NCBI GenBank assembly: GCA_963847655.1
Contig: CAWKAS010000014.1
Span: 29,584-93,583, forward strand
Origin: an uncultured Acidobacteriota bacterium
GTDB lineage: Bacteria > Acidobacteriota > Vicinamibacteria > Fen-336
Length of the DNA stretch: 64,000 nt
Direction: 5' to 3'
In this document: one piece after another, positions 22,532 through 34,476 of the stretch
Position numbering within the stretch: position 1 is the first letter of the stretch
How the letters are laid out: each line of letters begins with the position of its first letter
Notes under the pieces: generated by a model
The model's input: the letters and a program-made list of their open reading frames with translations, nothing else
Database searches by the model: none
Told to the model about the DNA's origin: nothing
Position numbers and translations under genes: made by a program

Positions 22532-23883
22532 TGGCCTCGGCCGCACCCGGGGTGGGCCGACGCGTCGGGGCCTCCGTCGTGGACGCCCTCGCAGGCGTGG
22601 GGGACGGCCTCGCCGCGCTCTGGCGGCGGTCGCTCGACTCCTCCTTCCTCTACCGCCGGCTGCACCGCCTGTGGCACGAGCGCTTCACCGCCCGGGGCCG
22701 CTTCGTCTTCCTGCTCTGCGTCGTCCTGGGGTTCGCGGGCGTCGACACCCGGCAGGCCCTGCTCTACCAGCTCTTCGCCCTCGCCGTCGGGCCCCTCCTG
22801 GTGGCCGGACTCCTGGCCCTGCGCCGTCCGCCCCGGGTGCGACTGGTCGGCCAGCTGCCCCGGCGGCTGACCGCCGGCCGCCCCGTGGCCGTGAGCGTCG
22901 AAACCGAGACGATGGGGCAACGGGAGAGCGGCAACCTCGTGGTCTCCTGGACCGGCCCCTCCCACAGGAGCGGCGGGGTGAGCGTGGAGCCGACCGACTC
23001 CTTCCTGGACTGTGGTGCCGGGAGGGCCGGCCACACGCGGATCGAGATCGCGGCCACGCACCGGGGACGCTACGTGGTTCCGGGGCTGGGCGTGAGCGGG
23101 ACCGACCCCCTGGGCCTGCTGGCCACGCGGCGCTCGGTCCGCCAGCCGGACCAGACCGTCCTCGTCTCCCCCCGTTTCTTCACCCTCGACGACCTTCATC
23201 TCCCCCTCGGTCGGCGCTATCAGCCGGGGGGCATCCCCCTGGCCGCGAGCCTGGGCGACTCCAACGAGTTCGTGGGCGCCCGCGAGTACCGGGAGGGCGA
23301 CCCCCTGCGCAAGATCCACTGGCGCTCGTGGGCGCGGCGGGGAGCGCCCGTCGTCAAGGAGTACCAGGAGGAGTACTTCTCGCGCATCGCCCTCGTCTTC
23401 GACACCTTTCTTCCCCGGCGGCCGCGGGCGGTCGAGAGGCGGGCCTTCGAGGCCGGCGTCTCCCTGGTCGCGTCGATTGCCGATCACTTCAGCCGCAGCG
23501 AGGAGATCGTGGACCTCTTCGCGGCGGGGCCGGACATCTACCAGCTGAGCGCGGGGAGGAGCCTGGCCTATCTGGAGAACGTCCTGGACGTGCTGGCCTG
23601 CCTCGAGCCCTGCCACGAGCCCCCTTTCGACGAGGTGGGGCCGCACCTGCACGAGAGCCTCGCGCAGCTCACCACGGTGGTGGCGGTGGTCCTCGACTGG
23701 GACGAGGGGCGCGAGGCCTTCCTGCACGGGCTCCGCGAGAAGGGGGTCGCCGTGCGCACCTTCATCGTGCACCCCGGGCCGACCCGGCGGCCCTGGGAGG
23801 GGGCAACCCGCGAGCTGGGGGAGATCACCCTGGTCGCCCCCGCCGAGGTGGAGCGGCGGCTCCGCGCGGGAGAGCAGGCGTGA
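22531..23883 (+). CDS. DUF58 domain-containing protein (MoxR partner, vWA-like)
   Basis: Its ATG overlaps the MoxR TGA (ATGA). It has N-terminal TM helices and the DUF58 core (EFVGAREYREGDPLRKIHWRSWAR). Confidence 0.85.
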   Translation: MASAAPGVGRRVGASVVDALAGVGDGLAALWRRSLDSSFLYRRLHRLWHERFTARGRFVFLLCVVLGFAGVDTRQALLYQLFALAVGPLLVAGLLALRRPPRVRLVGQLPRRLTAGRPVAVSVETETMGQRESGNLVVSWTGPSHRSGGVSVEPTDSFLDCGAGRAGHTRIEIAATHRGRYVVPGLGVSGTDPLGLLATRRSVRQPDQTVLVSPRFFTLDDLHLPLGRRYQPGGIPLAASLGDSNEFVGAREYREGDPLRKIHWRSWARRGAPVVKEYQEEYFSRIALVFDTFLPRRPRAVERRAFEAGVSLVASIADHFSRSEEIVDLFAAGPDIYQLSAGRSLAYLENVLDVLACLEPCHEPPFDEVGPHLHESLAQLTTVVAVVLDWDEGREAFLHGLREKGVAVRTFIVHPGPTRRPWEGATRELGEITLVAPAEVERRLRAGEQA

Positions 23884-25988
23884 GCCGGGAGCGGGCCCCC
23901 GCCCCCGCGGCGCCTCCCGCGGAGACCGGGGTCCTGTCCCGCTGGGCGCTGCACTTCGCCCTGATCGCCGCCCTGGGGGCGTTCGTCGTCGCCCGGGACG
24001 ACCGTTCGGTCCTCCTCCTTCTCATCCCCCTCGCCCTCGCGCCCGCGCTGCGGTGGCACCGGGCCCCGGCCTGGACGGTCTCGCTCCTCCCCGCGGTCGC
24101 GCGCGTGACCCTGCTGGTGGCCTTCGCCCTCGCCGTGCTGTCGAGGCAGCTGCTCTTCATCCGACCCGAGGTGGGCCATGCCTGGGCCGGGGGCCTGGGC
24201 TGGGTGCTGGCGATCCTCGCGGTCGTGTTCATCCTGGGACACCGCCTCTGGCCGGTGACCGCCACCCTCGTGCCGGTCGTGGTCGGCCTTCTCGCGGTGA
24301 GCGGGCTTGACCCGGGGGTGCGGCTGTTCACCTCCTTCGCGGTGGTGGGGGCCCTCGCCCTCTGGGCCTTCGCGTTCATGTCCGGGGGACCGCGCCGTCT
24401 CGGGTGGCCCCTGGCCGCCTTCCTGGGGGTCTCCGCGGCGGCGGCCGGGGGGACGATGCGCTTCCTGCCCTGGGCCCAGCCCCACGTCGAGCGGGCGGTG
24501 GCTCGGACGTTCGCCGAGGGGACCACCGGCCTCTCCGAAGAGTCACGTCTGGGCGAGTTCGGGGAGCTGGCGGTGTCGAGCCGCGTGGTCCTGCGCGTGT
24601 GGACCGCCGAGCCCCGCCTGCTCCGGGCCTATGTCCACTCGCAGTTCGACGGCCGCGAGTGGTCCTCGCCGCGGCACCTGGACATGCCCGACCCGCCACC
24701 GCTGCGCCCGGCGACGGGCGAGACGGGTCGCTCCTGGTTGACCGAGGTGCCGGGCCCGCGGTTCGTGATCCCGCCCGAGGACGATCTGCCCACGGGAACG
24801 CCGGGTGTCGTCGAGACGAGGGTCCTCCAGAGCGAGATCCGCGACTGGCCTCTCCTGGTCCCGGCCGCCACCCGACTGGTGCGGGCCCCGACCTCGCAGC
24901 TCACCCGGAGCCGGGAAGGGGTGCTGCGCTGGCCCCCGTACGAGCCGGCGCGGCTCTACGGGGCGGTCCACGACGCGGCCCGCGCCGCTCCCTCGCGGGG
25001 AGCGGACGAGACGTACACGGCGCGAGCGGTGGCCCTGGGGCTCCCGGGCCGCCTCGACCCCCGGGTCCGGGTGCTGGCCCGCGTCCTGGAGAGCGACGCG
25101 ACCTCCGACCGGGGGCGGCTCAGGAACACCGTGGAATGGTTGCGGTCCGGCTACACCTACAGCCTCGACGTGGGCGCGTTCGAGACCGAGGATCCTCTGG
25201 CGGAGTTCCTCTTCGACAAGAAGGAGGGGTACTGCGAGTACTTCGCCACCGCGGCCGCGGTGCTGCTGCGTCTGCAGGGGGTTCCCGCGCGCTACGTGAA
25301 GGGATTCAGCGTGGGGCCGCAGAACTTCGTGTCGGGCCGCTTCGGCGTCGGCGATCACTACCTCGTCCGGGAGTCGGACGCCCACGCCTGGATCGAGGCC
25401 TACATCGCGGGCGAGGGCTGGGTCGAGGCCGACCCCACGCCTCCGGCGGACCTCTCCCTCCTGCACGAGCCGGCTGCCGGATGGCTCGCCACGCTCCTCG
25501 AGGGCCTTCGAGTGCACGCCGCCCAGGTCTGGGCGCGCCTGCGGCACGAGGGGCTCGGCGGCGTCTGGAACGCCCTCACCCGGACCGCCGGCGCCCTCCT
25601 GGCCGGCCTCGGGCACCACCCCCTGGCGACGGGCGGTCTCGTGGCCGCTCTTCTCCTCGCGGCCTCGTGGCCGTGGTGGCGTGCGCTCCTGCTGCGGCTT
25701 CGCTCCCAGCGCCGGGCGCGCCTCGATCGACGAGCGGCCCTGCCCGGCGAGCTGGCGACGCTGCTCTCCACGGTGGAGCGCCACTGGGCGCGGCAGGGGC
25801 GCGCGCGCCCGCCGTCGCGGGGGCTGCGCGAGCACCTCGACGGCCTGCCCGAGGGGGTCCTCACCCCCTCGGCCCGGGAAGCGAGCGCCGCGGTCGTCGA
25901 CGCGTGCTACCGCTCGGCCTTCGCCGGGCGGCCTCCCTCGCCGGAGACGGTTGACGACTTGCGTTCGGCGGTCGCACGAATGAGCTGA
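23880..25988 (+). CDS. Transglutaminase-like domain membrane protein (TgpA-like)
   Basis: Its GTG overlaps the DUF58 stop (GTGA). There are about 6 N-terminal TM helices. The transglutaminase core carries the Cys-His-Asp triad (GYCEYFATAAAVLLR...DAHAWIEAY). Confidence 0.8.
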   Translation: MSRERAPAPAAPPAETGVLSRWALHFALIAALGAFVVARDDRSVLLLLIPLALAPALRWHRAPAWTVSLLPAVARVTLLVAFALAVLSRQLLFIRPEVGHAWAGGLGWVLAILAVVFILGHRLWPVTATLVPVVVGLLAVSGLDPGVRLFTSFAVVGALALWAFAFMSGGPRRLGWPLAAFLGVSAAAAGGTMRFLPWAQPHVERAVARTFAEGTTGLSEESRLGEFGELAVSSRVVLRVWTAEPRLLRAYVHSQFDGREWSSPRHLDMPDPPPLRPATGETGRSWLTEVPGPRFVIPPEDDLPTGTPGVVETRVLQSEIRDWPLLVPAATRLVRAPTSQLTRSREGVLRWPPYEPARLYGAVHDAARAAPSRGADETYTARAVALGLPGRLDPRVRVLARVLESDATSDRGRLRNTVEWLRSGYTYSLDVGAFETEDPLAEFLFDKKEGYCEYFATAAAVLLRLQGVPARYVKGFSVGPQNFVSGRFGVGDHYLVRESDAHAWIEAYIAGEGWVEADPTPPADLSLLHEPAAGWLATLLEGLRVHAAQVWARLRHEGLGGVWNALTRTAGALLAGLGHHPLATGGLVAALLLAASWPWWRALLLRLRSQRRARLDRRAALPGELATLLSTVERHWARQGRARPPSRGLREHLDGLPEGVLTPSAREASAAVVDACYRSAFAGRPPSPETVDDLRSAVARMS

Positions 25989-25995
25989 GGACCCC

Positions 25996-27537
25996 ATGCT
26001 GCTCGCCCGCGTGGTCGAACGGGTCGCCCAGGTCCGGGCCACCTCCCGCAAGACCGAGAAGATCGCGCTCATCGCCGAGCTCCTCGCCCAGACGAGCGGG
26101 CGCGAGACCGAGCTCGTGGCGCTGTACCTCACCGGGCGTCTTCCCCAGGGCCGGGTGGGCGTGGGCGGGCGCACGATCGAGGCGGCGATGGCGGAAGGGC
26201 CTCCGGTGGGCGACGCGCCGACCCTGGCCGCGGTCGACAGTGTCCTCGACGAGGTCGCGCGGGATCGGGGGGCAGGCTCGACCGAGCGCGGGCGCGCGGC
26301 CCTCCACGCCCTGCTCGCCCGGGTCGACCCGCCGGGGCGGCGCTTCCTGGCCGAGCTGCTCCTCGGTGAGGTGAGGCAGGGAGCGCTCGACGGGCTCGTT
26401 CGCGACGCCATCGCCCGCGCCGCGGGGCTCCCGGCCCCGTCCGTCCGGCAGGCGGCGATGTTCGCGGAGGACCTGGGGCAGCTGGCGCGGGTCGCGCTCA
26501 CGGAGGGGGCCGCCGGCCTCGCGCGCTTCTCCCTGCGGCTCCTCTCGCCGGTCGCTCCGATGCTCGCGAGCCCCGCCGACGACGTGAGCGCCGCCCTGGA
26601 GCGCCTGGGCCAGGCCGCCTTCGAGTACAAGCTGGACGGGGCACGTCTCCAGGTGCACCGAGCAGGCGAGGAGGTGCGGGTCTTCACCCGCCAGCTCCAG
26701 GACGTGACCGAGCGTGTCCCCGAGGTGGTGGAGTGGGCGCGCGCGCTCCCGGTGCGCGAGCTGGTCCTGGAGGGAGAGGCCCTGGCCCTGCGCGACGACG
26801 GCCGACCCCAGCCCTTCCAGGTGACCATGCGTCGGCTCGGACGCTCGAAGGACGTGGCGGAGGCCCGGCGCGTGCTGCCGCTCTCCGCCTTCTTCTTCGA
26901 CTGCCTCTTTCTCGAGGGGGACGGCTCCCTCGTCTCAGTGCCCTACGCGGAGCGGGCGGAGCGCCTGGTCCGTCTCGTCTCGGAGGGGAGGCGCCTGCCC
27001 CGTCTCGTCACCGCGGAGGCGGCGGAGGCGGAGGGCTTCCTCGCCCGGGCGCTCGAGGCGGGCCACGAGGGGCTCATGGCGAAGTCCCTCGCCGCGCCCT
27101 ACGTCGCCGGCCAGCGGGGATTCCACTGGCTCAAGCTCAAGCGGGCCCACACCCTCGACCTGGTCGTCCTCGCCGCGGAATGGGGGAGCGGCCGCCGCAA
27201 GGGCTGGCTGTCCAACCTGCACCTGGGCGCGCGGGACGCCGAGAGCGGCCAGCCGGTGATGCTGGGCAAGACCTTCAAGGGGTTGACCGACGCCATGCTC
27301 CGGTGGCAGACGGAGAGGCTGCTCGAGCTGGAGACCGGGCGCGACCAGTGGACGGTGCGCGTTCGGCCGGAGCTGGTCGTCGAGGTCGCCTTCAGCGACG
27401 TTCAGGAGTCGACCCGGTACCCGGCCGGTCTCGCCCTCCGCTTCGCCCGGGTGAAGCGCCACCGGCTCGACAAGCCCGCCGCCGAGGCCGACACCGTGCA
27501 GGCGGTCCGGGCGATCTTCGAACGACAGCGCGCCTGA
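25996..27537 (+). CDS. ATP-dependent DNA ligase (LigB/archaeal-type, N-terminal DNA-binding + adenylation + OB domains)
   Basis: KxDG adenylation motif (EYKLDGAR) plus motifs III-V. It starts 8 nt downstream of the transglutaminase gene. Confidence 0.9.
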   Translation: MLLARVVERVAQVRATSRKTEKIALIAELLAQTSGRETELVALYLTGRLPQGRVGVGGRTIEAAMAEGPPVGDAPTLAAVDSVLDEVARDRGAGSTERGRAALHALLARVDPPGRRFLAELLLGEVRQGALDGLVRDAIARAAGLPAPSVRQAAMFAEDLGQLARVALTEGAAGLARFSLRLLSPVAPMLASPADDVSAALERLGQAAFEYKLDGARLQVHRAGEEVRVFTRQLQDVTERVPEVVEWARALPVRELVLEGEALALRDDGRPQPFQVTMRRLGRSKDVAEARRVLPLSAFFFDCLFLEGDGSLVSVPYAERAERLVRLVSEGRRLPRLVTAEAAEAEGFLARALEAGHEGLMAKSLAAPYVAGQRGFHWLKLKRAHTLDLVVLAAEWGSGRRKGWLSNLHLGARDAESGQPVMLGKTFKGLTDAMLRWQTERLLELETGRDQWTVRVRPELVVEVAFSDVQESTRYPAGLALRFARVKRHRLDKPAAEADTVQAVRAIFERQRA

Positions 27538-27657: not shown

Positions 27658-27702
27658 CTTGACGGAACTACCAAGGTAGTATTACCGTAGTAGTTGAAGG
27701 AG
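27658..27702 (+). promoter_or_regulatory. blaI-family promoter/operator: TTGACG -35-like hexamer and two tandem 14-bp dyad boxes (ACTACCAAGGTAGT, ATTACCGTAGTAGT), then a GGAGG RBS
   Basis: Read directly: a TAC-N4-GTA dyad is repeated twice immediately upstream of the blaI-like gene. The GGAGG lies 8 nt before the ATG. Confidence 0.55.
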
Positions 27703-27709
27703 GACGAAG

Positions 27710-28096
27710 ATGCCGCGCCAGACCCTGGGCGATCTGCAGCACGCGATCATGGCCGTCCTGTGGGAGCGGGGGGAGGCCACCACCGCCGACGTTCACGAGG
27801 CCCTCTACGCCGAGCGGGGCCTGGCTCTGACCACCATCGCCACCATGCTGCGGAAGATGGAGGACAAGGGCGTCGTCGCCCACCGCTCCGAGGGCCGCCA
27901 GTTCGTCTACCGCCCCACGGTGACCCAGACGGAGGTCCGCGAGTCCATGGTGGGGGAGCTGGTCGAGCGTCTCTTCGGGGGCGACGCGAAGGCCCTGGTG
28001 GCCCACCTCGTCTCCGAGCACGAGATCGACGGGGCCGACCTGGCCGAGCTGCGCCGGCGCGTGGGGGCGGGCCGTGGGAAGGGGGGTCGGCGATGA
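27710..28096 (+). CDS. BlaI/MecI/CopY family transcriptional repressor
   Basis: 128 aa; winged-helix N-terminus (LGDLQHAIMAVLWERGEATTADVHEAL) and a C-terminal dimerisation helix. Confidence 0.9.
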   Translation: MPRQTLGDLQHAIMAVLWERGEATTADVHEALYAERGLALTTIATMLRKMEDKGVVAHRSEGRQFVYRPTVTQTEVRESMVGELVERLFGGDAKALVAHLVSEHEIDGADLAELRRRVGAGRGKGGRR

Positions 28097-30100
28097 GCGG
28101 GCTGACGGGCTGGCTCCTGACCTACCTGCTGCACAGCACGGTCCTGCTCGGTGGGGCGGCGCTCGTGGGTCTCGTCCTCCGGGAGCGCCGGCTCGGCCTC
28201 CAGGAGGCCGTGCTCAGGGCGGCGCTGGTGGGCGGCTTCCTCACCGCGAGCCTGCAGCTGGGTCTGGGCGTGCAACCGCTCGGCGGGGTCTTCACCCTCG
28301 CCGAGGCCCCGCCCGCTCCGCGGACGGTGCCGCTGGCCCCGCCCGCGCCGTCGGTCGTGACGTTGCAGGGGCCCCTTCCCGCCGTGCTCGAGGAGGTTGC
28401 GGAGACGCCCGACACGCGCGAGGCCACTCCTGGCTGGAGCCTTCCCGCACCCGCGGCGTGGGGGCCCGCCCTGGTGGGCCTGTGGGGCACGATCGGCCTC
28501 CTCGCCCTGGCCCGTCTCGGGGTGGCGGCGGTTCGCCTGCGGCGCCTGCTGCGTCCGCGCCATCCCCTGGCCGGCACCGGTCTGGCCTCGAGCGTGGCCG
28601 CCCTCACCGCGGGTCTCGGCCTGCGTCGCCCGGTTCCCGTGAGCACGGCGCCGCGGCTCGACGTCCCCCTCGCCACCGGCGTCGTCCACCCGGAGGTGTG
28701 CCTCCCGCCGCGGACCCTCTCCGAGCTCGAAGGGGACCAGCAGGTCGCCCTGTGCGCGCACGAGCTGGCTCACGTGGCGCGGCGCGATCCGACGTGGATC
28801 CTGCTCGCCCGGCTGGTCGAGGCCGTGGCCCCGCTCCAGCCCCTCAACATCTGGGCGCGACGCCGTCTCCAGGACGTGGCCGAGTGCCTGAGCGACGACC
28901 TCGCGGTGGCGGCCTCCGGGCATCCCGAGGGTCTGGCCCGCTCCCTCGTCGACGTGGCCGCGTGGACCGTGGCCGATGACGTTTACCTCCCCGCGGCGGC
29001 AGGGGCGCTCAGCTCCCGCCACCGCCTGGGGCATCGTGTGGAGAGACTCATGGACCCCCTGCGCTCACTCGAACGTCCCGGTCGTCTTCTTCTGCCGCTG
29101 GCCGGCGCGGCCGTGCTGGCCACGGCACTCGTCACCCCCGCCGTCTCGGGCACGTCGGTCCCGGAGGCGCAGCCGTCTTCGACGACCACCGTACCGAAGG
29201 CGCCCGAGGCGCCCGTGGCCCCGGAAGCTCCCGAGGCTCCCGAGGTGCCGGAGGCTCCCGGAGGCCCCGGAGACTCCGGAGGCCCCCGAAGCCCCCGAAG
29301 CCCCCGAAGCCCCGGAGGCGACGGAGAAGCCCCGCTCGCCGGCAGCGCGGGAGCTCGAGGAGCTGACGCGCCGGATCGAGGCGCGCGCCGAGCAGCACGC
29401 GGCGCAGATGGAGGAGGTCGGCGCCGAGATCGAGCGGATCGTGGAAGCCAGCCTGCCTCCGGAGGAGGAGATGGACCGCCTGGCCAGCGAGATGGAGAGT
29501 GCGGCCGAGGCCCTGGCCGAGGCGCACCGGATGCAGCACGGGCGCGAGGGCGCCTCCACCGAGGAGGAGCGCGCCGAGGCGCGGGCCCGGGCGGAGGCGG
29601 CTCGCGCCCGCATGGCGGAGGCTCGCGAGCAGATGCAGGCGGCCACTCGGGAGCTCGGGATTCCGGACGGCGAGCTGCGGCGCCTGCAGGAGCGGGCCCG
29701 CGACATGGCCAAGGCCGCCGCCCCCACGCCCGAGGAGCGGCGCCGACTCGAGGAGCTGACCCGCGAGATCGTCGAGGAGTCCATGCCCGACCTGGACGAG
29801 CTGCGTGAGGAGATGGAGGAGGTCGGCCGGACGCTCGACCTGGACGAGCTGCGGAAGGAGATGGCGGAGATCAACCGGACGGTGAACCGGGAGAGCAGGG
29901 AGGCGATTCGGGAGAGCATGCGGGTCGTGCGGGAGGCCCTGCGCGAGACCATGCCCCGTGTGCGCGCGGAGGCACGGGCGGCCCGTGAGGCCGCACGGGA
30001 GTCGGCACGCCACCGCCAGCGTGAGGTCGACGGCGACCGGGAGCTGGGCGAAGCGGAGCAGCGGCACGCGGACGAAGCGGCGGAGGCCCCCGAGCTCTAG
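28093..30100 (+). pseudogene. BlaR1-like M56 family metallopeptidase, with a PEAPEA repeat linker and a charged coiled-coil C-terminal domain (one frameshift inside the repeat)
   Basis: Its ATG overlaps the blaI stop (ATGA). It has 4 TM helices and the HExxH motif HELAH. A Pro-Glu-Ala 9-bp tandem repeat follows; an extra G near 29261 shifts the frame. The C-terminal ~270 aa is an E/R/A-rich coiled coil ending at 30100. No penicillin-binding sensor domain is present. Confidence 0.75.
29191..29330. repeat. Tandem 9-bp repeat array (CCCGAGGCT / CCCGAAGCC variants) encoding the (PEA)n linker
   Basis: Read directly from the sequence; about 14 units. Confidence 0.7.
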
Positions 30101-30300
30101 TGGCCTGTACCTCTGGGCCTGGTGGACCTTTGTTCGCTGATGCCGGAACGTGGGCCCCTGAGAGTCTCTCGGGGCGGCGTTGGAGCGAGCAGGTCCCACC
30201 CTACTGGGCCTGCAATGACGAGTGGTCTCCGGGTCGCAGGCGTCCATCAGTGGCCGGTCTTGGGTGTCTCCCAAGGCTCGGCGCCGCCGTGGGCTGGGCG

Positions 30301-30780
30301 TCAGCGTGGGTGCTCAACGGAAACGACGTAGCTGTATTCCGGTCCGGACCATTCGTAAAGGTGGTGGAAGACCACGAGCCGGTATTCACCCGCCGGTGCG
30401 TAGAACGGTGGGGCGAACCCGTACCCGGACGCGAGAGCGTACTGATCCACGAGGATCCCGGCGCTCGAGTTGCCGTAACGGTCGTTTGGGGGCAGGTCCT
30501 CACAGTGCCCCCCGTTCCCCGCGTCGGAGATCCAGTGGCAAACCGAGAGGGTGACCCAGTCGGTATCGAGGTACAGCGACCTGAACTCGAGAACGCCGAT
30601 GGTCACCGGTCCTTCCTGGCCCACTGAGAACGGGTGGTACACCGTGTGACCCGCTGTGAAGGCCCCCTCGAATGTCTCCGTAGTGAGAGGGGGCGGCGGA
30701 GGCGGCGAGGGCGAAGTTGGCGAAGAGGAACAGCCCAGGAGGCCAAGCACGAAGACGGAAGCGCCGACCACCCTCCCCAT
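30301..30780 (-). CDS. Hypothetical lipoprotein
   Basis: Start at MGRVVGASVFVLGLLGCSSS (lipobox LLGC); poly-Pro linker; ~130-aa domain of unknown function. Confidence 0.5.
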   Translation of the reverse strand: MGRVVGASVFVLGLLGCSSSPTSPSPPPPPPLTTETFEGAFTAGHTVYHPFSVGQEGPVTIGVLEFRSLYLDTDWVTLSVCHWISDAGNGGHCEDLPPNDRYGNSSAGILVDQYALASGYGFAPPFYAPAGEYRLVVFHHLYEWSGPEYSYVVSVEHPR

Positions 30781-31032
30781 GAGCCTCCATGGAGAATCAC
30801 AGTCCAAGGAAGGCTCTCCGAGCCGAAGCCATCGCCACCATCTTGCGGGCACGCCTCAACCTCTGAGACTCGAGCATACGCCCGGAAGGCATACGACTGC
30901 CAGCGACTTGCGTCTCCCGCCTCCCGGGCCTTTCCTCTGCGGACTCTCTCGCGTCGCTCGCACGCCTCCCGGCGGGGGCTGCACACGGAGCCCCGGCTGC
31001 GGCTGCAAGTGTGTTTGGCTCTGGGAGGTGTT

Positions 31033-31064
31033 TGGTGACCCGCCAGGGACTCGAACCCCGAACG
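31033..31064 (-). other. tRNA 3'-end-like fragment (T-arm + acceptor 3' strand + ACCA); no complete cloverleaf found
   Basis: The minus strand reads CGGGG-TTCGAGT-CCCTG GCGGGTC A CCA. No complementary 5' acceptor strand or anticodon arm lies within 90 nt. A second palindromic T-loop-like GGTTCGAACC sits at 31076-31085. Confidence 0.4.
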
Positions 31065-31495
31065 CAGAGGCTAGGAGTTCGAACCGGGGGCAACCCACCA
31101 GCACCCAGAAGCATGTAAGCGACGGGAAGCACGGGGAGAGCGACGAGTGAGCGACCTCGTGTGAGCGCGTGGATCGTGATGGGTTGGTGCCAACGTGGTG
31201 CCAAGCGAGCTCGCGGAGCCTGGCCGGCTTGGCGGGGGCGATCAGAACCCCCACCCCCGGGAGACCCTGGAGTGGGCTCGCCGGCATGGACAAACACTCG
31301 CCGCCGAGGTGGACCGTCTGCTGAAGGCCTCGCTTTCGCGGGTGCATCCCCCATCCGCACCGCTTTCGAGGAGATCCGACTCGTGAGACCTCGGGTCGCG
31401 CTCGACGAAGGGCGGCGGCGTCTCGGTCAGAGGTGGTAGTCTCGTGTGGAGCCCGCTCGGTCGGGGTCGCAGTCGACCGAACGAGGAGAGGTCCG

Positions 31496-32797
31496 GTGGC
31501 GAAGCAGACGCTCGCGGTCGTCATGGCTGGTGGCATGGGCGAGCGGCTACGGCCGCTTACCGACGTCAGGACCAAGCCCGCGGTTCCGTTCGGCGGCATC
31601 TATCGAATCATCGACTTCACCCTGAGCAACTGCCTCAACTCCGGTCTGTGGCAGGTATACGTCCTCACACAGTACAAGTCGCATTCGCTCACCAATCACA
31701 TCCAGGCGGGCTTTGGGTTTCTCTCGCGCCGGCTGAACCAGTTCGTCGAGACGATCCCAGCCCAGATGCAGACAGGTAGCCAGTGGTACGCGGGCACCGC
31801 CGACGCCATTCGGCAGAACCGGCTCTTCCTACAGCGCTCGGCGCCCCAGCAGGTCCTCGTTCTCTCGGGAGATCACATCTACAAGATGGACTACCGGATC
31901 ATGATCCACTTCCACCGAGAGCGCCGTGCCCGCGTCAGCGTGGCCTGCATCCGGGTCCCGGCGGAAAGCGCGCGTGGCCGGCTCGGTGTCGTGGAGGTCG
32001 ACGAGGAGGATCAGGTGACGGGGTTCGGGGAGAAGCCCGCCGAGCCCAAGACGATTCCGGGAACTGCCGACTGCCTGGCCTCGATGGGCATCTACCTGTT
32101 CAACTACGACGCCCTCCTCGAGACGCTGGACCTGGACGGGGAGGACTTTGGGCTGCACATCATCCCCAAGATGATCAAGGGCGGAGAACGCGTCTACGCC
32201 TACGACTTCACGAAGCGCAACCGCATCGCCGACTACGTGCACTTGTGGAAAGATGGTCTTCGCATGAAGGAGGTGAGCGATAACGCTCCCGACTCCGGCT
32301 ACTGGCGCGACGTGGGGACGCTCGACAGCTACTGGCGGGCGAACCTCGACCTTGTTTCCGTGGCGCCGCCTTTCAACCTGTACGGAGAGCTCTGGCCCTT
32401 GTTCGGTCGCCCGCAGCACGCCCCGCCGGCCAAGTTCGTGCACGAAGGCGACAGGACCGGTATCGCCATCAACTCCATCGTCTCTGAAGGAGTCATCGTG
32501 AGCGGCGCCCAGGTTCGGCGGAGCGTCCTCGGCCCCGGCACCTACATCCACTCCTACGCGACTATCGACCAATCGGTGCTCATGGGTGCGGCCCGGGAGA
32601 AGGGGACGCGCTACGAGACGACCATCGGCCGCCATTGCAGGATCCGCAACGCCATCATCGACAAGAACGTGCGAATCCAGGAAGGAGCGCACCTCGGCTT
32701 TGACCGAGCTCTCGACGAGCAGCGCGGCCTCACCACACTTTCCATCCCCGGCACGGACGAGTACCTCGTGGTCGTGCCGCGTGATGCCACCGTCTGA
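31496..32797 (+). CDS. glgC: Glucose-1-phosphate adenylyltransferase
   Basis: GTG start after a GAGGAGAG RBS. It has the MAGGMGERLRPLT nucleotidyltransferase motif, PAVPFGG and the left-handed beta-helix C-terminus. Confidence 0.9.
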   Translation: MAKQTLAVVMAGGMGERLRPLTDVRTKPAVPFGGIYRIIDFTLSNCLNSGLWQVYVLTQYKSHSLTNHIQAGFGFLSRRLNQFVETIPAQMQTGSQWYAGTADAIRQNRLFLQRSAPQQVLVLSGDHIYKMDYRIMIHFHRERRARVSVACIRVPAESARGRLGVVEVDEEDQVTGFGEKPAEPKTIPGTADCLASMGIYLFNYDALLETLDLDGEDFGLHIIPKMIKGGERVYAYDFTKRNRIADYVHLWKDGLRMKEVSDNAPDSGYWRDVGTLDSYWRANLDLVSVAPPFNLYGELWPLFGRPQHAPPAKFVHEGDRTGIAINSIVSEGVIVSGAQVRRSVLGPGTYIHSYATIDQSVLMGAAREKGTRYETTIGRHCRIRNAIIDKNVRIQEGAHLGFDRALDEQRGLTTLSIPGTDEYLVVVPRDATV

Positions 32798-32940
32798 CGG
32801 GCGCCTCGTGGAGCCGGCGGCCTGGGACCGCGGCATCGCCGGCCCGCGCCGAGCCGCGGGGCCAGACGGTGTGTTCGTCTACTGCTTCTTCAAGGGCACC
32901 GCCATCCGCTCGGATTGACCCTGGTGTCCGGAGGTGACTC

Positions 32941-33756
32941 ATGCTTGAATCGTGGCCGAGCCTGAGGGGCCTGGTGCTCGTCGTTCCTCTCGTCCTTCTG
33001 CCGGCGTGGTGGACGCTCGCCACCGCCGCGCCCCGGCCCGAGGCGGGAGTCACATTCACGGTCGTCTACGACAACACCGCGGTCGACGAGCGGCTGCAGC
33101 CGGACTGGGGATTCGCCTGCTTCGTCACCGGCAAGGAGCGGACCGTCCTCTTCGACACCGGGACGAAGCCGGACGTCTTATGGGCCAATTTGAGGAAGCT
33201 GCGCCTTCGACCCGAGGGCGTCGACGTCGTCGTGCTCTCCCACGAGCACGGGGACCACACGGGAGGCCTCTGGTCGTTTCTGGAGAGATGTCCGGACGTG
33301 ACGGTGGTGGCTCCCGACGGCTTTTCGTCGAAGTTCTTCGAGAGGGTGAAAACCGCCGGCGCCCGGAACCAGAGGATCGGGGCGCCAACCGTTGTCGGCG
33401 ACGGGCTGTGGGTGACCGGGGCCGTCGGCGGGGACATCGTCGAGCAGGCGCTCGTCGTCGAGACCTCGATGGGCCTCGTGGTCGTGACGGGCTGCAGCCA
33501 CCCCGGCGTCGTGGAGATCGTTCGGAAGGTCCAGGAGTTTCTGGCGCCGCCCATTCACCTGGTGTTCGGAGGCTTCCACCTTCTGAAAGCGTCCCCCGAA
33601 GGGGTGCGCGGTGTGATTCGGGACTTGAAGCAGCTCGGCGTGGAGCACGTCGGACCCACCCACTGCACCGGCGAGGAGGCCATCCGCCTCATCCAGGAGG
33701 GCTTCGGGAGCGACGATGTGAAGGTAGGGGCGGGGCGCATCCTGCGATTTCAGTAG
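32941..33756 (+). CDS. MBL-fold metallo-hydrolase (secreted)
   Basis: Signal peptide and the HxHxDH motif (SHEHGDHTGG). Confidence 0.8.
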   Translation: MLESWPSLRGLVLVVPLVLLPAWWTLATAAPRPEAGVTFTVVYDNTAVDERLQPDWGFACFVTGKERTVLFDTGTKPDVLWANLRKLRLRPEGVDVVVLSHEHGDHTGGLWSFLERCPDVTVVAPDGFSSKFFERVKTAGARNQRIGAPTVVGDGLWVTGAVGGDIVEQALVVETSMGLVVVTGCSHPGVVEIVRKVQEFLAPPIHLVFGGFHLLKASPEGVRGVIRDLKQLGVEHVGPTHCTGEEAIRLIQEGFGSDDVKVGAGRILRFQ

Positions 33757-34065
33757 CCGTTCGTGTGCTGGGCCTGGTCCTCTCTGTGCGCCGCGGGCCG
33801 CAGTGCCGCACGATATCCTGCTCGAAGGTCCGACCCTCGGGGCCGCGCACGAACTGCGTCGAGGCGAGGACCCGGGCGAGGGCGGGGTCGATCGCGGCCC
33901 GAAGGGGCCGGTACCGAGCCTGGAGGCCCATCCTCGGGGGCGGCGCCCGAGACGCCGCCCCCAGGATGCAAGCCCCCAGCGGGGTCTAGCCGCCTAGGAG
34001 TCCACCCCCGTCCGCCGGGGAGGCGTTCACCCGTCGCGCGGCAGGCCGGTTATCATGGGGCACCG

Positions 34066-34476
34066 ATGACCCCTGATCAGGTCGACGTCTTCCGGACGAG
34101 CCTGAACCGCTGTCTGGCCGCCAGCGGCTTCCTCGAGAGCTTCTACCAGAGCTTCGTCGGCTCCTCGGAAGAGGTGCGCGAGAAGTTCAAGAACACCGAC
34201 ATGAAGCGCCAGATCAAGATGCTCGAGGACTCCCTCTACGTCATGGCGGTGGCGGCGCAGGGGGGGCGGGGCAGCCCCGCCCGCGGCGCCCTCCCCGCGA
34301 TCGCCCGAAGACACAGCCGCGAGGACCTCGACATCCGGCCCGCACTCTACGACCTGTGGCTGTCGTCGCTGATCGAGACCGCTCGGCGCTACGACCCGGA
34401 CTTTACCGACGCCACCGAGGCGGCGTGGCGCGGCACCCTCTCCGCGGGCATCGAGTACATGCGCTCACGCTACTAG
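34066..34476 (+). CDS. Globin-like (sensor-globin/protoglobin-type) small protein
   Basis: 136 aa; FLESFYQSFVGSSEEVREKF...KML matches globin helix patterns. The TAG stop is contributed by a MITE terminus. Confidence 0.5.
   Translation: MTPDQVDVFRTSLNRCLAASGFLESFYQSFVGSSEEVREKFKNTDMKRQIKMLEDSLYVMAVAAQGGRGSPARGALPAIARRHSREDLDIRPALYDLWLSSLIETARRYDPDFTDATEAAWRGTLSAGIEYMRSRY

Follow-up and report, generated by a model that had tools for sequence, protein, structure and literature searches.

In the uncultured Acidobacteriota bacterium (Vicinamibacteria; Fen-336) deposited as assembly GCA_963847655.1, a stretch of 64,000 nucleotides (nt) of contig CAWKAS010000014.1 (positions 29,584 to 93,583, forward strand; hereafter the window) was analysed. 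The window has an overall GC content of about 72% and carries, in its middle part, a blaI repressor gene followed immediately by a gene for a membrane peptidase of the M56 family. The peptidase is continued through a proline-rich repeat spacer into a helical C-terminal domain. The pair is a member of the non-canonical BlaIR (CenIR-like) class, in which an M56 protease without a transpeptidase stands beside a BlaI homologue. In the reading set out below it is probably an autoregulated regulatory pair of Vicinamibacteria-type Acidobacteriota that responds to a periplasmic cue other than a β-lactam. The features of the module are as follows (aa, amino acids; TM, transmembrane segment).

27659-27664, plus strand: candidate -35 hexamer TTGACG of the putative blaI promoter
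27667-27680, plus strand: operator dyad 1, ACTACCAAGGTAGT, candidate BlaI site, an exact match to ACTACCNNGGTAGT
27681-27694, plus strand: operator dyad 2, ATTACCGTAGTAGT, a degenerate copy (YTACCTTGGTAGT in relatives) overlapping the candidate -10
27683-27688, plus strand: candidate -10 hexamer TACCGT, proposed from its 18-bp spacing to the -35
27696-27703, plus strand: putative ribosome-binding site GAAGGAGG, read from the sequence 6 nt 5' of the blaI ATG
27710-28096, plus strand: blaI, winged-helix repressor of the BlaI/MecI/CopY family, 128 aa
28093-29259, plus strand: M56 gene, part 1 (frame 1), with TM1-TM4, the gluzincin domain on the cytoplasmic side and the first half of the PEA linker
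29198-29319, plus strand: tandem repeat with 9-nt units, coding for the (P-E-A)n spacer (Tandem Repeats Finder, TRF: period 9, 13.4 copies)
29254-29263, plus strand: site of the frameshift, at which the repeat unit GCTCCCGGAG is 10 nt long instead of the expected 9, one C or G being surplus
29264-30100, plus strand: M56 gene, part 2 (frame 2), with the rest of the linker and a helical domain of roughly 250 aa; stop codon TAG at 30098-30100
29788-29881, plus strand: direct duplication of 48 nt within the part for the helical domain (DLDELREEMEEVGRTL / DLDELRKEMAEINRTV; TRF: period 48, 2.0 copies, 86% matches)

The repressor and its operator

The elements 5' of blaI are arranged in the order TTGACG-GA-ACTACCAAGGTAGT-ATTACCGTAGTAGT-T-GAAGGAGG-N6-ATG, and two adjacent dyads (ACTACCnnGGTAGT) overlap the blaI promoter. 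The core TAC-N4-GTA is found at exactly two sites in the window, 27669 and 27683. A search of the window for ACTACCNNGGTAGT with at most two mismatches returns both dyads and one poor site, 0.47 sites being expected by chance. Of the 16 distinct related loci that cover this region, 15 carry tandem dyads spaced by 14 bp centre to centre and placed directly after TTGAC(A/G); in the Acidobacteriota loci the TTGAC(A/G) is conserved 2-3 nt 5' of dyad 1. In those loci, each 6-14 kb long, the dyad pair stands 5' of blaI, about 35-90 bp from its start, and occurs at no other place. More distant blaI-M56 pairs sharing the operator occur in Planctomycetota and Verrucomicrobiota. Two Planctomycetota loci carry the dyad pair with TTGAC as the -35 rather than TTGACA or TTGACG, and one Verrucomicrobiota locus retains one dyad only. 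This comparison argues strongly that the tandem dyads form an autoregulatory operator that overlaps the promoter and to which BlaI would bind. The bla and mec operators of Staphylococcus aureus are TACA/TGTA dyads and share the TAC...GTA core with the dyads described here. Literature look-ups for a published BlaI operator consensus returned nothing usable.

The blaI product matches PF03965 (Penicillinase_R) over residues 6-118 with an E-value of 4.6e-32 (111 bits against a cut-off of 22.6) and is 80-85% identical to the BlaI proteins of related loci. It scores under the cut-offs of both NCBIfam models concerned, CopY_TcrY and BlaI_of_BCL, the best match being TIGR02698 (CopY_TcrY) with 73 bits against 122. 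The PF03965 fold is common to this protein and to the CopY/TcrY repressors. The protein contains no cysteine in its 128 aa, and therefore the C-terminal CxCxxxxCxC metal site is absent; it is also paired with an M56 protease, unlike CopY. A metal-sensing repressor of the CopY type was rejected on the sub-threshold TIGR02698 score and the lack of cysteine.

The M56 gene starts with ATG at 28093, which overlaps the blaI stop codon as ATGA (28093-28096), and its product reaches 51 bits with PF05569 against a cut-off of 31. Both family matches and the overlap uphold an earlier interpretation of this DNA made without database searches (the sequence-only reading), which had described a BlaI repressor translationally coupled to an M56 peptidase. 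It had proposed a check of homologues and their neighbours, and the search for homologues yielded 234, over 200 of the relatives being uninterrupted. Full-length homologues are mostly 560-700 aa long, and the M56 domain is present in all 72 aligned ones. They are distributed in Acidobacteriota, mainly in Vicinamibacteria and partly in Thermoanaerobaculia. In all related loci fetched that include the region, blaI is directly upstream of the M56 gene.

The M56 protease and its interrupted reading frame

Hydropathy of the M56 protein delineates four hydrophobic segments (residues 7-30, 40-58, 121-147 and 329-354). They agree with the helices at 2-29, 34-57, 117-150 and 331-345 in an AlphaFold2 (AF2) model of P0001, an uninterrupted homologue of 665 aa from an Acidobacteria metagenome-assembled genome (MAG). 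The motif HELAH occupies residues 223-227 (28759-28773) and is followed by ECLSD, of the EXXXD type, at 264-268 (28882-28896), and by Asp232 five residues past the second histidine of HELAH. Thus the four membrane segments and the HELAH motif named in the sequence-only reading were recovered. Among the 72 homologues, HELAH, EXXXD and the Asp at +5 are invariant or at least 90% conserved, the Asp being invariant. The His-to-Glu spacing of 41 residues equals that of H201...E242 in S. aureus BlaR1, whose signature motifs have been described (PMC9834060). Part 1 of the protein is 77-79% identical to P0001.

The AF2 model of full-length P0001, built from the 72 aligned sequences, has a mean predicted local distance difference test score (pLDDT) of 81.9. 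Its membrane and protease part is confident, its linker (356-420) disordered and its C-terminus helical. In a Foldseek search of the PDB with this model, the BlaR1 entries determined by cryo-electron microscopy (8EXQ, 8EXP, 8EXS, 8EXT and 8EXR) lead with a probability of 1.00. S. aureus BlaR1 entries hold places 1-5 and 7, and the TM-score to 8exr_A, a construct of the transmembrane and protease parts, is 0.59; ZMPSTE24 and BepA come after BlaR1. The BlaR1 model of NCBIfam (blaR1_generic) gave the window protein 20 bits against a cut-off of 400. The transpeptidase family PF00905 was matched neither by the corrected-frame window protein nor by any of the 72 homologues. The claim that a penicillin-binding sensor is missing therefore stands, and correction of the frame revealed no hidden transpeptidase.

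BlaR1 has its active site in the cytosol and exposes its N-terminus and the domain after TM4 to the outside (PMC9834060). Positive-inside signals are present in the window protein after TM1 (RERR), after TM3 (RLRRLLRPR) and before TM4 (RSLERPGR). Judged by BlaR1 homology and the positive-inside rule, the C-terminal region would be located in the periplasm.

No single open reading frame (ORF) encodes this protein in the window. The M56 frame (frame 1) passes into G/R/P-rich junk and stops at 29808, while the helical region is read in frame 2. The break lies in the PEA repeat at 29254-29263, where the surplus base puts the helical part in the +1 frame and where the tblastn matches to P0001 change from frame 1 to frame 2. 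Removal of any single base of 29256-29261 yields an ORF of 668 aa with unbroken PEA periodicity, whose product is 70% identical to P0001 over 100% of the length. The M56 ORF is continuous in related loci. Since full-length uninterrupted homologues exist, the fused architecture of M56 domain, spacer and helical region is real. A Pro/Ala-rich linker of variable length is found in all homologues, and the linker region is disordered in AF2 (pLDDT of about 50). The (PEA)n repeat and the E/R/A-rich tail ending in AEAPEL, both reported earlier, are present, but not in one ORF with the M56 domain as then assumed; two frames had been silently joined.

The window copy of the M56 gene carries either an assembly error or a recent real mutation. 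As written, the gene would yield a protease that lacks the sensor and ends in a junk tail. If the frameshift is a real mutation, the gene is a pseudogene or encodes a truncated variant of about 388 genuine residues with an out-of-frame tail of about 183 aa in place of the sensor. The module would then be locked, permanently repressed or mis-regulated. This is a serious possibility, though one to which somewhat less than even weight is given. The sequence as given does contain the surplus base, and a tblastn comparison of roughly 14 kb with proteins of relatives detected no frame breaks in the neighbouring genes (ligase, blaI, globin, CSD, CBS and the large gene at 36-39.8 kb), so the assembly is not generally indel-ridden. 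The relatives' ORFs were used for this count because a codon-position GC phase plot was too noisy for counting frameshifts. However, the frame downstream of the break is still a clean ORF of 258 codons, 62-69% identical to the relatives up to the common stop, and any inactivation must thus be very recent. GC-rich 9-nt tandem repeats are typically prone to local assembly and polishing errors, and other MAG copies of the gene are visibly frameshifted by assembly (L007, P0107 and P0114). An independent contig across the site was not recovered: an exact-protein look-up of BlaI gave one contig of 619 nt whose DNA ends in the first M56 codons, short of the frameshift, and one of 1452 nt without readable DNA. 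Two metagenome scans for contigs over the site, anchored on a 32-mer and 20-mers, returned either none or unrelated ones.

The locus L007 (CAVOYO010000024.1, 4001-5980 and flanks) is a related long contig in which both the M56 gene and the large gene downstream are broken in frame several times, at places where the window is intact. It illustrates that indel errors are common in some MAG assemblies of this lineage.

Another explanation of the break is programmed +1 ribosomal frameshifting, in which the P-site tRNA-Pro slips from CCC to CCG before a GGA codon, a codon assumed to be rare in this GC-rich genome. The context GGAGG-CT-CCC-GGA at 29250-29262 places a Shine-Dalgarno-like GGAGG 2 nt upstream, an arrangement reminiscent of prfB, and the +1 product would be exactly the consensus ...EAPEAPE... 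Against this, none of the relatives examined needs a shift, and, conservation being absent, there is no sign of selection. In addition, GGAGG arises automatically from the codons CCG-GAG-GCx in every repeat unit, so that the supposed stimulator is a by-product of the repeat and not a specific feature. Programmed frameshifting is thus very improbable.

The C-terminal helical domain

The C-terminal region is rich in charged residues and alanine (69 D+E, 47 R+K and 47 A in 260 aa, ending in AEAPEL), and shares 62-69% identity with P0001 and P0002 over their C-termini. For the domain as encoded in the window, AF2 predicts (pLDDT 91.7) seven helices broken at conserved prolines: 8-45, 49-75, 82-113, 117-134, 138-155, 159-172 and 175-255, the last of which is long and E/R-rich. 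This terminal helix, of 80 residues, may form pairs across two chains, BlaR1 being a domain-swapped dimer. An alignment of 30 homologous domains shows a conserved core with prolines recurring where helices start. Its first block reads LEELxRRIEERA..HEAEM..LEAEIEA....P..AE.ERL and its second AARRMAEL..QLR....R.P.EE.RAL.EKARALAE.ARPT.EEL.E.RRLS. The coiled-coil tail of the sequence-only reading is hence partly retained: the region is helical and E/R/A-rich, but it is not a plain low-complexity coil.

Searches of Pfam and NCBIfam with the C-terminal region, alone and in the 72 and 30 homologues, returned only sub-threshold coiled-coil noise. A sequence search of the PDB with the domain profile returned only designed bundles, GCN4 and tropomyosin (chimeras), and the domain has no specific relative by fold either. 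Among 1.84 billion cluster representatives, the profile found only 68 proteins at E <= 1e-3. In the strong full-length matches the domain lies at about residues 420-680, behind the M56 HEXXH motif, and the shorter strong matches look like fragments. With so few matches, nearly all behind M56, the domain is a narrow lineage-specific module of an M56 subfamily, restricted to some uncultured bacteria of soil. Apart from the window, the 48-nt duplicated segment (alignment columns about 155-200) is confined to the closest relatives, from which it follows that the domain grows by internal repeat expansion.

One stand-alone relative of the domain, P0132 (167 aa), has a signal-peptide-like start, in keeping with a location in the periplasm. 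Together with the difference in frame between the helical region and the M56 domain in the window, it could suggest that the helical region has a gene to itself, such as one for a secreted coiled-coil protein. The only listed start in frame 2 is, however, ATG 28976, and the roughly 100 residues after it are R/P-rich junk without a signal peptide. As the M56 frame remains open until 29808, two such genes would share about 830 nt. Moreover, the PEA repeat runs on across the shift and the relatives encode one uninterrupted protein. The separate-gene explanation, which the sequence-only reading had itself foreseen as a test of its proposal, is therefore scarcely credible.

Distant kinship with the periplasmic Spy/CpxP/ZraP proteins (LTXXQ, Metal_resist), which would make the domain a sensor of unfolded envelope proteins or metals, is also unlikely, if not to the same degree. 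The homologue P0048 matches PF13801 at E 7.2e-6, and the domain has recurrent helix-start motifs (R)P(T/S)xEE(L/M)xx(L/I), which in our view resemble the LTxxQ helix starts. However, PF13801 was found in only one of the 72 members, and the 25 families listed at E <= 1 for the 30 isolated domains include neither it nor PF07813. Membership in this group was rejected on the single PF13801 match among 72.

Globin linkage, the proposed circuit and the flanking genes

The region downstream of the M56 gene contains the following features, one of which, the globin gene, recurs beside the pair in relatives.

30301-30852, minus strand: lipoprotein-like ORF with no family match, inside a 3.9-kb segment
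31433-32797: glucose-1-phosphate adenylyltransferase-like gene, inside the same segment
32941-33756, plus strand: secreted hydrolase of the metallo-β-lactamase (MBL) fold with a signal-peptide-like start (PF00753, E 8.9e-14)
34066-34476, plus strand: globin-fold gene of the PA3967 type, 136 aa (PDB 1TU9, E 3.8e-23)

The globin scores 19.9 bits with PF00042, under the cut-off of 22, and is 90% identical to the product of the gene that follows M56 in the related locus L001. A globin gene of this type comes next after the M56 gene in most close relatives and in many Vicinamibacteria-type loci. In seven loci, it begins 19-83 nt after the M56 stop on the same strand, and in the P0002 locus 77 nt after it. 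Such short same-strand gaps make a blaI-M56-globin operon likely in the relatives, and the globin is a probable extra output of the switch there. The globin genes lie at 2173-2583 in L001 and at 7795-8205 in L002. The structure 1TU9 is that of PA3967 of Pseudomonas aeruginosa, a structural-genomics protein. A call of an M56::globin fusion (P0107) is probably a frameshift artefact.

The segment at 30101-34065 (about 3.9 kb) has a GC content of 0.66-0.67 as against 0.72-0.76 on either side. The two closest relatives lack it at this position and have 77-83 nt between M56 and globin. An insertion in the window, a loss from the relatives or a mis-join could account for it. The MBL-fold gene that it carries, downstream of a pair bearing the name bla, could mislead. 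It might be supposed that the pair is β-lactam-responsive after all, through indirect sensing of cell-wall damage, and controls this gene 2.8 kb downstream, which belongs to the MBL superfamily, has a signal-peptide-like start and lies on the same strand as M56. However, the gene belongs to the segment that both of the closest relatives compared lack between M56 and globin. No operator dyad accompanies it, and between it and the M56 gene stands a minus-strand ORF. Its product is also far under every β-lactamase cut-off, e.g., 24 bits against 240 for bla_subclass_B3. This explanation thus has very little probability.

The preferred reading is that of an autoregulated pair with a periplasmic non-β-lactam cue. 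In the proposed circuit, a BlaI dimer would bind the two adjacent dyads over the sigma-70-type promoter of its own operon and repress it. Its partner would be an inner-membrane M56 gluzincin with the active site towards the cytoplasm, whose C-terminus may extend into the periplasm as a PEA-repeat spacer of about 55 aa followed by the lineage-specific all-helical domain of about 250 aa. A periplasmic or outer-envelope cue other than a β-lactam would act on the helical domain and switch on the protease. Cleavage of BlaI would then derepress the operon, which in most relatives would comprise blaI, M56 and globin. The orientation of the protease is here modelled on BlaR1, with the positive-inside rule as a further guide to topology; the cleavage of BlaI and the existence and nature of the signal are postulated. 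The label of an envelope-stress module attached to the pair by the sequence-only reading was an unsupported guess.

Several observations weigh against this interpretation. The scissile pair of S. aureus BlaI is Asn101-Phe102 in the dimerisation domain (PMC9834060); in a by-eye alignment it is not kept in the window BlaI, which has His-Leu there (LVAHLVSEH). The family profile (A1) does not reach the S. aureus BlaR1 sequence at E <= 0.01, and the relationship is therefore remote; the P0001 model and BlaR1 share 13% identity with a Foldseek E-value of about 1e-3. Globin is not adjacent in the window, being separated from M56 by the 3.9-kb segment, and is absent from the fetched flanks of 4 of the 12 distinct loci with the helical domain. 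All of the relatives are MAGs. Finally, with its M56 gene interrupted in the window, the module may not function in this bacterium.

A 2026 survey of about 15,000 M56 proteins in InterPro distinguished 254 architectures, of which the commonest is M56 with an unannotated C-terminus and the second M56 with TonB_C, the transpeptidase sensor accounting for about 6% (PMC13492132). With a β-lactam sensor so infrequent, the window pair is a sensor variant of a common kind, and the absence of that sensor is not the notable feature that the sequence-only reading took it for. Experiments tie non-canonical BlaIR pairs to non-antibiotic roles, namely CenIR of Clostridioides difficile (PMC13492132) as well as PvmSR of P. 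aeruginosa and the BlaIR of Mycobacterium tuberculosis and M. abscessus (bioRxiv 10.64898/2026.08.03.742534). None of the non-canonical pairs studied is tied to β-lactams (PMC13492132; bioRxiv 10.64898/2026.08.03.742534).

Similar to BlaI-BlaR1 of S. aureus and Bacillus licheniformis and to MecI-MecR1, the repressor and protease genes form one operon. The likeness to BlaR1 comprises the four-TM M56 gluzincin with HEXXH...EXXXD at a 41-residue spacing and an Asp five past the second His, an extracytoplasmic TM2-TM3 loop, a C-terminal domain after TM4, and the nearest solved structures (8EXP, 8EXQ and 8EXR). Unlike BlaR1, the window protein has a Pro-rich spacer and a helical domain in place of the transpeptidase/SXXK sensor, its host is diderm, and a β-lactamase or PBP2a target gene is lacking; the repressor differs from S. 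aureus BlaI in the cleavage pair.

The pair has in common with CenIR, mycobacterial BlaIR and PvmSR an M56 protease without a β-lactam-binding domain beside a BlaI-family repressor, and thus falls in the commonest InterPro architecture, M56 with an unannotated C-terminus. Those systems belong to other phyla, and the likely target here is a globin. The tail of CenR is shorter and mostly disordered, whereas that of the window protein is long, conserved, confidently folded and carried on a repeat spacer; mycobacterial BlaR and PvmS are essentially sensor-less. In the M56-TonB_C fusions, M56 is likewise followed by a proline-rich, probably extended periplasmic spacer, which could bring the terminal domain nearer to the outer membrane, and TonB itself has a Pro-rich (EP/KP) spacer. 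The terminal domain of the window protein is, in contrast, all-helical, and PF03544 (TonB_C) was matched neither by this protein nor among the families listed for the relatives. New here are the repeat spacer with a folded and conserved helical sensor, the defined operator and the globin linkage.

A bolder proposal is that the PEA spacer and the PxxEE-repeat helical domain constitute an undescribed family of periplasm-spanning sensor domains, which would report the outer-envelope or redox state to M56 and have a PA3967-type globin as its output through BlaI. This is speculative and on balance doubtful. If true, envelope sensing in Vicinamibacteria would be coupled to the physiology of haem, O2 or NO. 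BlaIR-type pairs are emerging as a broad class of one-step transmembrane signalling systems with mostly unknown inputs, and the present module offers three handles on them. These are a folded and conserved candidate sensor domain, which goes beyond the disordered CenR-like tails; a sharply defined operator of tandem ACTACCnnGGTAGT dyads, with which the regulon may be read out in any Vicinamibacteria genome; and a recurrent candidate target gene, the globin. The relevance is mainly to work on envelope signalling and on the physiology of soil Acidobacteriota, and nothing established is overturned.

Upstream of the module, the region 22671-27537 is syntenic with the P0002 contig and contains genes for a DUF58 protein, a TgpA-like transglutaminase and an ATP-dependent DNA ligase, followed by blaI. 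The listed ORF of 1105 aa at 22671-25988 is an artefact of a far-upstream GTG start, which overruns the preceding gene in another frame; the real start of the TgpA-like gene is at about 24.0-24.1 kb. In L002 (9204-13770, minus strand) and L004 (8087-14076, minus strand), a giant gene of more than 2200 aa is convergent to the blaI-M56 cluster. It combines TamB, POTRA and Omp85 domains in one product, an unusual fusion of the TamB-BamA/TamA type.

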